Positions 6,154-16,123 of a stretch of DNA of 64,000 nt are shown here, piece after piece. Source of the DNA: Escherichia phage N4; sequence record NC_008720.1. One strand, given 5' to 3'. The notes beneath the pieces are model-generated. The model was not told where the DNA came from. It saw only the letters and a list, made by a program, of their open reading frames with translations, and did no database searches. The translations under genes and the position numbers were made by a program. Every line of letters starts with the position of its first letter. The stretch's first letter is position 1.

Positions 6154-6159
6154 GGTTTT

Positions 6160-11832: not shown

Positions 11833-13922
11833 TGAAACGAAATTATCTCGCCATTATTGCCCTGTCAGTAGACAGCCGTAACCTCACCTTATGGCAACCA
11901 GATGGTTCTACTATGGTCATCCCCCAAGGGGATGCCCGTGTACCTCGTATTGTTGCTGAAGCAAAAGAAAAGAATCTTACCCCAGGTAAGATTATTGAAG
12001 TGGATGTCACTATCGAAGCTCAGATTCGTCAAGAGTTTCTAGACGCTGAACGTGATACAGGTGGCTTTGTTAAATTCTTCCGTATTACCAAGAAGAAGCT
12101 GCAAGAGTTCTTTTTGGGGGAAGAGGAAGAACAAGTCCCTCATGTATCACCTGTAGAGTTAGGTGCTAAACCAACTGCTTTCAATGCTTTTATTGCTAAT
12201 GCTGTAGGCAAAACTCTTGCTGTACAACATGCATCATTAAAAGCACCTGAACCAGAAATGACAGTTACTCATGAGCGTTTTTACGGTAACTATGCTGTAT
12301 GGATTACAGATGTAGACCCACGGAATCATCGTATTGAGGTTATTCATGTTATCCGTGAAATCTCAGGAAGAACCAGTGAATATGTCAATAACCTGCTGGC
12401 TCAACCAACTCCATTCAAAGTGTTTGATTGGCTCACAGAGACTCAGGCTAAAGAATTTGTAAGACGTCTGAATAACACTCAGGGTGTTATCTCTGTCTAT
12501 AACAAACTGGAAGACGGTATTCCTGCTAAGGTTGCCGTGAAAGCTACAGAGCCAACCAATAAAGAAAAGCTGGAAGCTGCATCATCTAAGCTGAAAGCTA
12601 TGGGTGCTGTCGCTACTGATGCTTACGAGTTTCATACTGACTTGAATGAGAATGAAGAGACTATTGTAGCTGTAGTAAATGATAAGGTGGTTCCTGATGT
12701 TCAGAACCTACATCGTCATATCCGTCAATCTGCAAATTTGAAAGACTATAAAGGCTTTACTAAGTTTCTTGAACGCCTGTCTACTGTAATTGATAAACGT
12801 CGTCACTCTGTTGAAGACCTGATGAAGTTTATGGAAAAAGGTGACCTGCCAATTGCAGATGATGGCTCCATTGTTATCTTCAAACGTCTGGAAAGCAAAG
12901 ACAATCCTGAACATCTTAAAGATGTAATGGATGATGTATTTGTTGATTGCCATTCTAAGAAGATTGAGCAATGCGTTGGTATGCGTGTAATGGTTAGAGA
13001 AAGCCTTGTAGACCAGAACCGTCGTAAAGACTGTTCTCATGGTTTGCACGTAGCTTCTCTGCAATACATTCGTAATTTCTCAGGCAACGTAACCATTATT
13101 GGTAAAGTTGCTCCAGAGGATGTATTTGCAGTACCAGAATACGATGTTACTAAGATGCGTGTATCTGCTTATCACATCATTACCAAGCTACCTGACGCTA
13201 TTCGTGACCATGTTAATAATGGCAATCCAATCTCCACCATTGAGGGTGGTACGGAAATTCTGAACATGGTTCTCAGTGGTAATCACCCTGAACCTTCTCG
13301 TCAGGTACTGGTTGGTGGTCATTATGGAACCAATCTGACTTATTCAGAACTCACCCGTAATTATCTGGATGATGTGGAAGACATCGTTATTCCAGATGAA
13401 CCAGTAATTAAGAAAACTGCCTTGAATATGGAAGAGAGCTTTACGGCAACTAATCCTAAAGCCGAACCAGTGAAGGCAACGGATGTTAAACCTATTAAGA
13501 AGACTAAGATGGAAATTCTTAAAGACCTTTGGAACCAGTTCCTGAAAGCAGAGACTTCTAATGAAGCTATTACGCTGGCTGATGAAATCATTGCTGCTAA
13601 GGGCAAATGTAAGAAGTCATGGGCTTCTTTAGGCTTCAGTGGTGACATGGTTCAGAAACTGATTGATGCTCGTGCTAATAAGCCTAAGCCAGAAAAAGCA
13701 GTCAAACAGGATAAAACTGTTGCACCTAAGAAAACTACAGTCACTCGTAGTCGGAATGCTGATGTTATTCGTAGTTATCTGAATGACAAAGGTATGTCTG
13801 ATTACTGTAAAGCTCATGCCATTCACGATGTGAAACGTGCTGCTAAGAAGTCTTATGCTGCACTGGGTCTGACTCCTGAAGAATGCAGCCAAATTGATAA
13901 ACTGAAGCATCATCTGAAGTAA
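11832..13922 (+). CDS. rIIB: rIIB-like protein (putative)
   Basis: 696-aa ORF translationally coupled to the rIIA-like gene; assigned by position and size only. Confidence 0.4.
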   Translation: MKRNYLAIIALSVDSRNLTLWQPDGSTMVIPQGDARVPRIVAEAKEKNLTPGKIIEVDVTIEAQIRQEFLDAERDTGGFVKFFRITKKKLQEFFLGEEEEQVPHVSPVELGAKPTAFNAFIANAVGKTLAVQHASLKAPEPEMTVTHERFYGNYAVWITDVDPRNHRIEVIHVIREISGRTSEYVNNLLAQPTPFKVFDWLTETQAKEFVRRLNNTQGVISVYNKLEDGIPAKVAVKATEPTNKEKLEAASSKLKAMGAVATDAYEFHTDLNENEETIVAVVNDKVVPDVQNLHRHIRQSANLKDYKGFTKFLERLSTVIDKRRHSVEDLMKFMEKGDLPIADDGSIVIFKRLESKDNPEHLKDVMDDVFVDCHSKKIEQCVGMRVMVRESLVDQNRRKDCSHGLHVASLQYIRNFSGNVTIIGKVAPEDVFAVPEYDVTKMRVSAYHIITKLPDAIRDHVNNGNPISTIEGGTEILNMVLSGNHPEPSRQVLVGGHYGTNLTYSELTRNYLDDVEDIVIPDEPVIKKTALNMEESFTATNPKAEPVKATDVKPIKKTKMEILKDLWNQFLKAETSNEAITLADEIIAAKGKCKKSWASLGFSGDMVQKLIDARANKPKPEKAVKQDKTVAPKKTTVTRSRNADVIRSYLNDKGMSDYCKAHAIHDVKRAAKKSYAALGLTPEECSQIDKLKHHLK

Positions 13923-13989
13923 GTAGGTTAACTATTCAAGTAGCTCCAGTTGAAATATACTGGAGCTATCTTTGAAGAGGATACATACT

Positions 13990-14385
13990 ATGGCCAAAGT
14001 TTATCGTGCTAACCGTAAAGCCTATGATGACGATATTATTCGTATGAATGCAGTCGGTTTATCATTGGGAACCATTGCTAAAACATTAGGTGTTCACCCC
14101 ACTACAGTTACCTTACGATTACGCTCTCTTGGTATTGAACCAGCCGACACACGTCGAACATTTATGGAGAACGTATTAGCACCATTACCTACTCACGTAG
14201 CTGATTGGTTATCGGAACAAGTAGGACCAAAGTATGAGATTCGACAATACGTTCGAGACTTATTACTGGAAGCCTACAATAATCGTCATAATCATAAGGA
14301 AACTGCCCATGAACGATTCCTCAAAAGATACGTTGGTACAAACCCAGAACTGGTTTCTGAAGGCAGTACCCAACCCAACGAGTAA
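13990..14385 (+). CDS. Helix-turn-helix DNA-binding protein
   Basis: Track ORF 13972-14385; start moved to ATG 13990. HTH-like GLSLGTIAKTLGVHPTTVTLRLRSLGI. Confidence 0.5.
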   Translation: MAKVYRANRKAYDDDIIRMNAVGLSLGTIAKTLGVHPTTVTLRLRSLGIEPADTRRTFMENVLAPLPTHVADWLSEQVGPKYEIRQYVRDLLLEAYNNRHNHKETAHERFLKRYVGTNPELVSEGSTQPNE

Positions 14386-14761
14386 AAACATTAGTACCCA
14401 GATTGGTTGCCATCTGGAAGAAGTAGCAGAAATGCTAGAAGCAATATGCAGCGTCTATAAGGAAGACGATAAGAAAATAGCTTATCTGAGAGAAGCCATT
14501 GTTCATGTAGCAGACCTCATTAAACAAAATGGGGGTATTGCTGTGAAAGACCCAAATGATCTTTTAGATAGTATTGCTGACCAGATTGTTACAGCAACTG
14601 GCGTCGGTACTTTCTTGGGTATGAACGTACCTGGAGCACTCACTGAAGTGAACCGTTCTAATTATTCAAAATTTGAAGACGGTGAGCCTGTTTTCAATGA
14701 GAATAAGAAAGTAATGAAAGGTAAGGATTATACTCCGCCTGATTTAACCCCATTCATTTAA
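14309..14761 (+). CDS. Putative all-alpha NTP pyrophosphohydrolase (MazG-like); start uncertain
   Basis: Track ORF 14234-14761; first ATG with an SD (AAGGAAA) is 14309, which overlaps the HTH gene by 77 nt out of frame. EExxE...E...D pattern (HLEEVAEMLEA...REAIVHVAD). Confidence 0.35.
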   Translation: MNDSSKDTLVQTQNWFLKAVPNPTSKNISTQIGCHLEEVAEMLEAICSVYKEDDKKIAYLREAIVHVADLIKQNGGIAVKDPNDLLDSIADQIVTATGVGTFLGMNVPGALTEVNRSNYSKFEDGEPVFNENKKVMKGKDYTPPDLTPFI

Positions 14762-14765
14762 AAGA

Positions 14766-14788
14766 GCCGCCCATATAGGGCGGTTTTT
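14766..14788 (+). terminator. Rho-independent terminator
   Basis: CCGCCC-atata-GGGCGG followed by TTTTT. Confidence 0.6.
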
Positions 14789-14803: not shown

Positions 14804-16123
14804 ATGTATAAAAGTACTACTAAGCTGCCACTAAATCCTGGTCAAGAGGCAGCGGCAGAAGGTTTCTTCGACTTTCTGCTCGACCCCAATGCTTCTGAAC
14901 TTCGTATTAGTGGACCTGGTGGTACAGGCAAGACATTTACAATGGCTCATATGATTGACGAGATTATGCCTCGTTATCATGAGACATGCAGTCTGATGGG
15001 AATCCCTGCTCTCTATAACGAAGTTATTATGACTGCTACTACTAATAAGGCAGCAGAAGTATTAGCCCGTGCAACAGGACGTCCTACGTCTACCTATCAT
15101 TCCTTTCAAGGTCTGACAGTACGGAATAACCTGAAGACTGGAGAAGCAGACCTGATTCCATCTAAGTCCTTCAGTATCAAAAAGAATAAGGTCATCTTTA
15201 TTGATGAAGCATCAATGATTGACCGTAAACTGAAGAAGTTTATTAACGAAGGTACTCACCAAAGTAAGATTGTTTACTTGGGTGATAAATGCCAATTGTT
15301 GCCTGTAAAGGAAACTTCTTCCCCTGTCTACAATGACAGTAGCATTAAAGAGTTTATGCTGACCCAGCAGATGCGTACTGATGTCCCTGAACTCCATGCA
15401 CTGCATGAACAGCTTCGTGGAACCATTGAAGGTAAGCACGGATTCCTGCCTATTAAAGCAGTTCCGGGTATTATCGACTGGATTGAAGATGGTGATGAAA
15501 TGAGAAAAGAAGTCGAGGGTCATTTCATGACTAAGACTGACACTCGTATTGTTGCCTACACCAACCAACAGGTTGTTAACTATAACACCTTCATTCGAGC
15601 CATGAATGGATTCCACGGGGAGTTCTGTATTGGTGAAGAGTTAGTAAGTAACTCTGCTATTCAGATTGGTGCTGGTGACCGCCTCAGTATTGAACAGGAA
15701 TGCCAAATTGTTGACCAGGATTCTGCTACTCGTAAGATTCTGATTGATTCCTCTGGTATCGAATTAGAAGTACGTGATTGCACTCTGGATACTGGTTATG
15801 GTGGTGTCTTTGAAGGTATCCCTATTCCGGTAGATATGGATTATTTCATTCGTTTGCAAAAGTACTATGCACACCAAAAGAACTGGGAACGTCATTTCTA
15901 TTTGAAAGAAACATTCCCTGAACTTCGGGCATTACATGCTTCTACTGTGCATAAGTCGCAAGGTTCTACCTACGACACCATCTTTATTGATGCTACTGAT
16001 TTATCTACTTGCCGTCAGCCTGATGTAGTAGCACGTCTGCTTTATGTAGCAGTATCTCGTGCTCGTCATCGTGTTGTGTTCTATGGCTCTTTGGCAGAGA
16101 AATTTGGTGGTCTGGTTCGCTAA
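14804..16123 (+). CDS. SF1 DNA helicase, Dda/RecD-like
   Basis: Walker A GPGGTGKTF (nt 14912-14935), Walker B IFIDEASMI, HKSQGSTYD, and motif VI YVAVSRARHRVVFY. Confidence 0.85.
   Translation: MYKSTTKLPLNPGQEAAAEGFFDFLLDPNASELRISGPGGTGKTFTMAHMIDEIMPRYHETCSLMGIPALYNEVIMTATTNKAAEVLARATGRPTSTYHSFQGLTVRNNLKTGEADLIPSKSFSIKKNKVIFIDEASMIDRKLKKFINEGTHQSKIVYLGDKCQLLPVKETSSPVYNDSSIKEFMLTQQMRTDVPELHALHEQLRGTIEGKHGFLPIKAVPGIIDWIEDGDEMRKEVEGHFMTKTDTRIVAYTNQQVVNYNTFIRAMNGFHGEFCIGEELVSNSAIQIGAGDRLSIEQECQIVDQDSATRKILIDSSGIELEVRDCTLDTGYGGVFEGIPIPVDMDYFIRLQKYYAHQKNWERHFYLKETFPELRALHASTVHKSQGSTYDTIFIDATDLSTCRQPDVVARLLYVAVSRARHRVVFYGSLAEKFGGLVR

Follow-up and report, generated by a model that had tools for sequence, protein, structure and literature searches.

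The 77-nucleotide overlap between gp35 and gp36 of Escherichia phage N4 is very likely genuine and is conserved among N4-like phages

The gp35/gp36 locus

The window analyzed here is a stretch of 64,000 nucleotides (nt) corresponding to positions 6154–70153 of the Escherichia phage N4 genome, and it contains two small genes on the plus strand, gp35 and gp36, that share 77 nt of coding sequence (coordinates below are those of the window). gp35 (YP_950513.1; 13990–14385) runs from an ATG at 13990 to a TAA at 14383–14385 and encodes 131 amino acids (aa), and gp36 (YP_950514.1; 14309–14761) runs from an ATG at 14309 to a TAA at 14759–14761 and encodes 150 aa; the products of both open reading frames (ORFs) match the respective N4 proteins exactly. 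The shared, dual-coding segment (14309–14385, plus strand) comprises gp35 codons 107–131 plus the stop codon and, in the other frame, gp36 codons 1–25 plus two bases of the K26 codon. The start codons are offset by 319 nt (14309 − 13990), which is 1 modulo 3 and places gp36 in the +1 frame relative to gp35. A Shine-Dalgarno sequence, AAGGA (14296–14300, plus strand), lies 8 nt before the gp36 ATG, within gp35 codons 103–104, and a Shine-Dalgarno-like AGAGGA can be read from the sequence at 13976–13981 (plus strand), 8 nt before the gp35 ATG. The locus is 99% identical in Enquatrovirus phages such as vB_Eco_Jura (hereafter Jura) and 100% identical in the viral contig L015.

A first-pass annotation of the window had described the overlap, and its length, +1 frame and coordinates (14309–14385) are borne out by the sequence. 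That annotation offered an unusually long genuine overlap, a non-ATG start of gp36 just past the gp35 stop, and a frameshift joining the two frames as alternative explanations. We conclude that the overlap is very likely genuine, with gp35 and gp36 made as separate proteins and gp36 starting at ATG 14309. Both overlapped protein ends have homologues, selection within the overlap is frame specific, and the overlap is conserved across three genera. A genome-wide survey, which used the annotation of the 99%-identical phage Jura, found this to be the longest same-strand overlap in the genome at 77 nt, followed by overlaps of 38, 29, and 26 nt.

Predicted functions of gp36 and gp35

An exhaustive search recovered 1,573 relatives of gp36, which matches PHROG 671 (“nucleotide pyrophosphohydrolase”) with an E value of 3.7e-33. 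In an alignment of 98 diverse sequences, E37, E38, E41, and D91 are invariant and W15, F16, P23, and D87 are at least 90% conserved, while W15 and F16 are invariant in the A1 alignment. An AlphaFold2 (AF2) model built on the 98-sequence alignment had a pLDDT of 96.7 (98 at residues 11–20) and predicted helices at residues 8–19, 25–44, 51–74, 82–102, and 107–119. The first of these in the model, helix alpha-1 (residues 8–19; 14330–14365, plus strand), is encoded wholly within gp35 and carries W15-F16 (14351–14356). The features typical of the superfamily were found as follows: the helical EExx(E/D) motif is represented by the EExxE metal-binding motif (E37, E38, and E41; 14417–14431, plus strand) within predicted helix 25–44, a second acidic motif by D91 and D87 within predicted helix 82–102, and the helical-bundle fold agrees with that of a solved member.

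A profile search of gp36 against the PDB found 3nl9 (Exig_1061); a single-sequence phmmer search of gp36 against the PDB gave nothing significant, and an NCBIfam search gave nothing above its cut-offs. The gp36 homologue P0209 has PRA-PH and MazG-like Pfam matches, all of them sub-threshold. Like Exig_1061 (PDB 3nl9), DR2231 (PDB 2yeu and 5hva), and MazG, gp36 has a helical-bundle fold, an EExxE motif, and a downstream acidic motif; unlike them, it has no Pfam MazG or PRA-PH match of its own, and it is only 18–21% identical to these proteins. Based on sequence and the structural model, gp36 is predicted to be an all-alpha nucleoside triphosphate (NTP) pyrophosphohydrolase of the MazG/DR2231-like superfamily, and its enzymatic activity would follow from that assignment.

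gp35 belongs to PHROG 6377 (E = 1.2e-71), a family whose function is unassigned. Its conserved core spans residues about 9–100, with an invariant PADTRRxFME motif and a putative helix-turn-helix (HTH) at about residues 13–46, and its C-terminal tail (residues 107–131) is the part coded by the overlap. Matches to the Pfam families HTH_38, HTH_23, and HTH_30 (E = 0.001–0.008) and to the N-terminal region of the IS21 transposase (E = 4e-5) were all below cut-offs. AF2 predicted short helices at residues 13–22, 26–33, and 37–46, with a pLDDT of 85–92 in the core, a low-confidence helix at 106–115, and values below 50 at residues 116–131, and a Foldseek search of gp35 returned generic HTH domains only (E > 0.2). 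The product is thus best described as a small putative HTH protein that may bind DNA.

The start of gp36

The gp36 start was surveyed at 94 loci, namely 14 annotated phage records and 80 viral contigs. All 94 have a Trp corresponding to W15, phages without the overlap included, residues 1–25 of gp36 align across the entire set, and the start codon lies 6–16 codons upstream of the invariant Trp; at many of these loci an in-frame stop sits merely 7–17 codons upstream of it. Alignments from tblastn searches reach gp36 residues 1–14 in phages of Rhizobium, Vibrio, Erwinia, Pseudomonas, and Achromobacter as well as in other phages, many of which are not N4-like. Because the W15 codon (14351–14353) is upstream of the gp35 stop, some overlap between the two genes is unavoidable in N4. 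The first-pass annotation had named homologues starting cleanly past the HTH gene's stop as the observation that would speak against a long overlap, and this comparison does not refute the overlap: relatives that lack it have a gp35 that ends earlier or is absent altogether, and the gp36 start is unchanged and no later.

If the overlap were instead an annotation artefact arising from 5' over-extension, gp36 would start past the gp35 stop, at ATT 14390, ATT 14402, CTG 14414, or ATG 14432. Over-extension of the downstream gene is indeed the commonest class of error for long co-directional overlaps; Pallejà et al. saw no real co-directional overlap of more than 60 bp in 338 prokaryotic genomes and put most such cases down to mispredicted starts (PMC2478687), and some gene callers picked the ATG equivalent to 14432 in the phages ST4, PMBT57, and PhAPEC7. 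The in-frame ATT and CTG codons noted earlier near the gp35 stop are present (14390, 14402, and 14414); they are the codons of I28, I32, and L36, and none has a Shine-Dalgarno sequence before it. A start anywhere past 14385 would also lose helix 1 together with W15-F16 and would contradict the purifying selection on the gp36 frame described below. As for the ATG at 14432–14434 (plus strand), which had been said to cut through the EExxE motif, a start there would destroy the motif, though by deleting all of it: this codon is Met42, directly 3' of E37-E38-x-x-E41, and the invariant E37, E38, and E41 would all be lost. In homologues that no upstream gene overlaps, the start keeps its relative position and follows a strong Shine-Dalgarno sequence, for example AAGGAG in Vibrio 1.090.B and AAGGA in RHEph24. 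We therefore reject a non-ATG start just after the gp35 stop and regard any start downstream of gp35 as highly improbable.

A start elsewhere inside gp35 is also very unlikely, although the gp36 frame is open upstream of W15 at two further potential start codons, ATG 14234 (giving a 152-nt overlap and a 175-aa protein) and TTG 14333 (a 53-nt overlap and 142 aa). The earlier claim that 14309 is the only ATG with a Shine-Dalgarno sequence stands as regards 14309, with AAGGA 8 nt upstream, and fails as regards its uniqueness, since ATG 14234 has AGGA 7 nt upstream. Among the three candidates (14234, 14309, and 14333), only ATG 14309 is conserved. G7C-, ST4-, and KP8-type phages carry in-frame stops between the equivalent of 14234 and the conserved ATG, and the region coding for gp35 alone, when read in the gp36 frame, gives a ratio of nonsynonymous to synonymous polymorphism (pN/pS) of 1.85, from which we take it not to be coding in that frame. 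TTG 14333 has no Shine-Dalgarno sequence and does not occur in G7C- or KP8-type relatives. Between the upstream stop and W15, KP8 and Mimir124 have no start codon other than the counterpart of ATG 14309, and the site of the AAGGA reads AAGG in KP8-type phages.

Selection within the overlap

Selection was assessed in 17 distinct Enquatrovirinae sequences (N4-, G7C-, and KP8-type) that share the 77- or 86-nt arrangement. Where gp35 alone is encoded, entropy was highest at gp35 third codon positions (0.94, vs 0.26 at first and 0.14 at second positions), and within the overlap it was the third positions of gp36 that peaked (0.81). Among the gp36 codon positions in the overlap's 3' half, 12 of 13 third positions were variable, compared with 10 of the 26 at first and second positions combined (Fisher p = 0.0014), and no third-position excess was seen in the gp35 phase. 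Values of pN/pS followed the same pattern, at 0.16 for the gp35 frame in the gp35-only region, 0.61–0.62 for each of the gp35 and gp36 frames in the 5' half of the overlap, and, in the 3' half, 0.26 for the gp36 frame and 1.32 for the gp35 frame, compared with 1.4–1.85 for wrong-frame controls; given the relatedness of the sequences, these figures point to selection but fall short of proof.

The first ~12 codons of the overlap are constrained in both frames (0.61–0.62 each) and would therefore be dual-constrained, whereas in the last ~13 codons the gp36 frame appears to be under purifying selection and gp35 residues seem to vary like passengers. The comparison of the junction across relatives that had been proposed for both frames thus gave a split answer, with both frames conserved in the 5' half and, in the 3' half, only gp36 constrained and the gp35 frame just kept free of stops. 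The dual-constrained codons encode the gp35 motif HERFLKRYxG, and gp35 residues 107–117, which hold this motif, are conserved in Enquatrovirinae, Achromobacter phages, and Mimir124, while residues 118–131 are not. These patterns, together with the conservation of helix 1 and W15-F16, support the first-pass option of an unusually long genuine overlap.

An open second frame is by itself unremarkable, since in about 9% of the window's long ORFs the −1 frame runs for 25 codons or more from a start codon without meeting a stop. When gp36 was recoded synonymously with N4 codon usage, the gp35 frame stayed open over 25 codons in 3.4% of cases (0.4–13% for relatives), while in nature it is uninterrupted in 17 of 17 distinct Enquatrovirinae sequences. 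Across codon boundaries, T-ending codons give rise to TAA, TAG, or TGA; they account for 16% of gp36 codons 1–25 vs 42.5% genome-wide. Codon choice in gp36 thus appears to avoid stops in a way that keeps the gp35 frame open.

Whether the gp35 extension as such is maintained by selection is a separate matter. The HERFLKRYxG helix and the polar, acidic, disordered tail that follows might be functional, or the transit of gp35-translating ribosomes across the gp36 start, with termination well past it, might set the gp35:gp36 ratio through coupling or occlusion; we offer this tentatively and, on balance, would not favor it. If it were true, the co-directional overlap of the N4 pair would be both functional and conserved and would exceed in length every one accepted as real in cellular prokaryotes (56 bp, PMC2478687).

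Separate proteins or a frameshift product

The two frames are open in parallel over 77 nt, and a programmed ribosomal frameshift in this segment could in principle join gp35 to gp36 as an HTH-pyrophosphohydrolase fusion. Just one potential slippery heptamer, AAACCCA, occurs in the X_XXY_YYZ phase for gp35, at 14340–14346, and a distant homologue of gp36, P0164, is called as a single ORF with a GerE-like HTH before its MazG-like domain. Joining the N4 frames would require a +1 (or −2) shift, however, and ribosomes slipping by −1 at AAACCCA would read the third frame and meet a stop after five codons. The heptamer is missing from the 99%-identical Jura and from all other relatives, and is therefore probably a chance occurrence. 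RNA folding around the overlap was no better than that of shuffled sequence (z = −0.18), and the overlap had no Rfam match above threshold. A gp35-like segment was found in none of 270 gp36 homologues; in several lineages a gap or an HNH gene separates gp35 and gp36, and gp36 is found alone in many non-N4 phages. The frameshift that had been put forward as an option is rejected on these grounds, and we consider it the least probable of the readings discussed here.

P0164 itself is a 213-aa ORF whose GerE/LuxR-like HTH match is sub-threshold (E = 3.6e-4) and which has an internal Met just before the WF helix; it may be a genuine fusion of HTH and MazG or else a pair of neighboring genes in frame with each other. 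Its arrangement echoes the adjacency of the two genes in N4, with no sequence homology to gp35.

Several observations weigh against the conclusion that the overlap is genuine and gp36 a predicted pyrophosphohydrolase made separately from gp35. The Shine-Dalgarno sequence of gp36 is weaker in G7C-type phages (GAG only), and the pN/pS ratios are pooled pairwise values from related sequences rather than phylogenetically independent tests. For the 3' half of the N4 overlap alone, the probability of an open gp35 frame is 0.33, which amounts to modest stop avoidance. A Pfam scan of gp36 gave no family at E ≤ 1 (including MazG PF03819, MazG-like PF12643, and PRA-PH PF01503), and in a Foldseek search against the PDB the DR2231 entries were top-ranked but weak (E about 1). 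A literature search found no ribosome profiling, N-terminal proteomics, or genetics for N4 gp35/gp36, and the literature on overlaps in N4-like phages and on CRISPRi-ART, transposon, and HIDEN-SEQ essentiality screens yielded nothing on the pair.

Distribution and origin of the overlap

Overlap length and gp35 length were compared at 39 loci with a gp35 homologue. In several Schitoviridae lineages (Ea9-2 and related contigs), gp35 is 101–110 aa long and the overlap ranges from −9 to +17 nt. The N4, G7C, and KP8 genera have a gp35 of 131 aa and an overlap of exactly 77 nt, and one Enquatrovirinae clade has 134 aa and 86 nt. The corresponding values are 121 aa and 80 nt in Pokken, 141 aa and 131 nt in HN01, and 167–195 aa and 185–269 nt in Achromobacter phages; GC-rich Burkholderia and Achromobacter phages together span 141–195 aa and 131–269 nt. 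In every overlap-bearing lineage, gp36 is in the +1 frame relative to gp35. A higher GC content means that stops are fewer, but no significant correlation between overlap length and GC content was seen across lineages (Spearman rho = 0.21, p = 0.31); the longest overlaps (131–269 nt) are nonetheless all at loci of 55–58% GC.

The overlap very likely arose by 3' elongation of gp35 into gp36 (overprinting), because gp36 keeps its family-typical N-terminus throughout. The TAA stop of N4 gp35 is built from the gp36 S25-K26 codons (AGT-AAA); the same site reads CAT-AAA in KP8 and CAG-AAG in the 86-nt clade, where gp35 stops 9 nt later. In the Achromobacter N4-like phages (loci L010/L060, L032, and L074), the gp35 frame is open for 185–269 nt into gp36 and encodes low-complexity tails rich in Gly, Asp, Pro, and Ser. 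The Achromobacter extension starts with the motif TAYERHLAKYGG, which it has in common with TAHERFLKRYVG of N4.

Endonuclease genes at the junction

Natural experiments on the junction are provided by two Gamaleyavirus-type phages in which HNH_3/AP2 endonuclease genes sit exactly between gp35 and gp36, namely Mimir124 (719–1198 of locus L003) and the pSb-1-type contig L027 (968–1492). In both, gp36 starts right after the HNH stop and retains 10–14 residues before the Trp. The gp35 of Mimir124 (118 aa) is not overlapped and still carries AHIRYLRAYGG, and its gp36, complete at 150 aa, begins 3 nt past the stop of the HNH gene. In L027, the inserted HNH_3 endonuclease ORF (E = 9.4e-16) opens with the ancestral gp36 N-terminus, MTSSSVCTLE, and therefore captured the old initiation region of gp36; this ORF still overlaps gp35, and gp36 has acquired a new N-terminus, MSDIITQTKKWF, and begins again past the stop of the HNH ORF. 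Judging from these sequences, each gene in Mimir124 and L027 seems to retain what the overlap encodes for it, as a copy or an equivalent, and this would be expected if both frames matter. Recurrent insertion of HNH genes at this junction is suggested by P0209, a database protein called as a fusion of HNH_3, AP2, and MazG-like parts.

Genomic context and proposed expression of the pair

The two genes are flanked by an rIIB-like gene (gp34), which ends at 13922, and a helicase gene with its ATG at 14804. The 67-nt spacer between the rIIB-like gene and gp35 contains a perfect 10-bp inverted repeat with an 8-nt loop (13941–13968, plus strand; arms 13941–13950 and 13959–13968, 100% complementary), and the G7C record has a stem_loop annotated at the equivalent position; the repeat may serve as a terminator, a processing site, or a stabilizer. 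Directly 3' of gp36 and upstream of the helicase gene, a GC-rich hairpin (GCCGCCC/ATATA/GGGCGG) is followed by TTTTT (14766–14788, plus strand). The Jura, AL25, PhAPEC7, and Pokken records list this hairpin as a terminator, while a separate hairpin scan flagged it on the minus strand only; it is likely an intrinsic terminator closing the gp35-gp36 unit. That the pair is bracketed by the hairpins at 13941–13968 and 14766–14788 suggests that gp35 and gp36 form a two-gene unit.

Under our preferred reading, gp35 and gp36 would be two proteins translated from one transcript unit. gp36 would most likely initiate independently at its own Shine-Dalgarno sequence (AAGGA, 8-nt spacer), 77 nt before the termination of gp35, and ribosomes finishing gp35 would pass over the gp36 start, with possible coupling or occlusion between the two translations. 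In one frame, the overlap would encode the gp36 start and first helix with the invariant Trp-Phe, a helix that is integral to the fold and occurs in all homologues; in the other, it would encode a C-terminal extension missing from the 101–110-aa gp35 of other Schitoviridae. The upstream gene would have been elongated 3' into gp36, with gp35 now ending at a TAA supplied by the codons of gp36 residues 25–26. Residues 7–18 of gp36 form a tryptic peptide, DTLVQTQNWFLK, that is coded entirely by the overlap, and the C-terminal peptide of gp35 is YVGTNPELVSEGSTQPNE.

Annotation of the junction in related phages

The junction appears to be annotated wrongly in the records of ST4, PMBT57, PhAPEC7, HN01, KP8, and Axy13. 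The gp36 orthologue is started at Met42 in the ST4, PMBT57, and PhAPEC7 records, leaving it without EExxE, at another internal Met in HN01, and at a GTG 57 nt downstream in KP8; in the Axy13 record, it is a 49-aa fragment beside a 195-aa gp35. Records that place the gp36 start at Met42 or another internal Met (ST4, PMBT57, PhAPEC7, and HN01) or that fragment the gene (Axy13) would thus describe a protein lacking the EExxE motif.

The PMBT57 (1110–1568 of locus L005) and BEU5-type records, otherwise 98% identical to N4, carry a mosaic gp36 that agrees with N4 over roughly the first 40 residues and is only ~72% identical over the remainder, with a length difference of 3 aa. This pattern points to a probable recombination breakpoint just after the EExxE motif.

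The significance of these results is mainly one of housekeeping, in that the N4 reference annotation is very likely correct in showing a long overlap here and no new biological question is opened. The pair also offers a well-sampled case of a long same-strand phage overlap in which the upstream gene's 3' end grows into a 5' region of the downstream gene that is conserved. The overlap seems to split into a dual-constrained part and a passenger part, and HNH insertions that separate the genes in relatives serve as natural experiments.

Comparison with known gene overlaps

Long gene overlaps are well known in phages, and the overlap between gp35 and gp36 is not new, because the reference annotation of N4 already includes it, as do the records of G7C, Jura, and AL25. 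All of these give identical relative coordinates and a 77-nt overlap, and our description of the feature does not differ from theirs; what we add to the existing annotation is evidence that the overlap is real, its probable origin, and the inconsistent annotation of the junction elsewhere.

In cellular genomes, the longest co-directional overlap accepted as real in the 338-genome survey was that of holD and rimI (32–56 bp), and every overlap of more than 60 bp was put down to annotation error, phages being outside the scope of that survey (PMC2478687). Like holD/rimI, the N4 overlap is conserved among related genomes and both protein ends are conserved (PMC2478687). It differs in being phage-borne, in its greater length (77 nt, reaching 269 nt in the N4-like phages of Achromobacter), and in being traceable to a 3' extension of gp35 via lineages in which gp35 has 101–110 aa.

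In the model of Fonseca, Harris, and Posada (2013), unidirectional overlaps more commonly arise by 3' elongation of the upstream gene after loss of its stop codon (PMC3887535). The N4 pair resembles this model in that the upstream gene is elongated, with a family-typical gp36 N-terminus and a gp35 that is longer than its orthologues. The model needs no selection (PMC3887535), and here the N4 pair differs, with stop avoidance in the overlap and the HERFLKRYxG motif kept in the non-overlapped gp35 of Mimir124, which suggests that part of the gp35 extension is maintained by selection.

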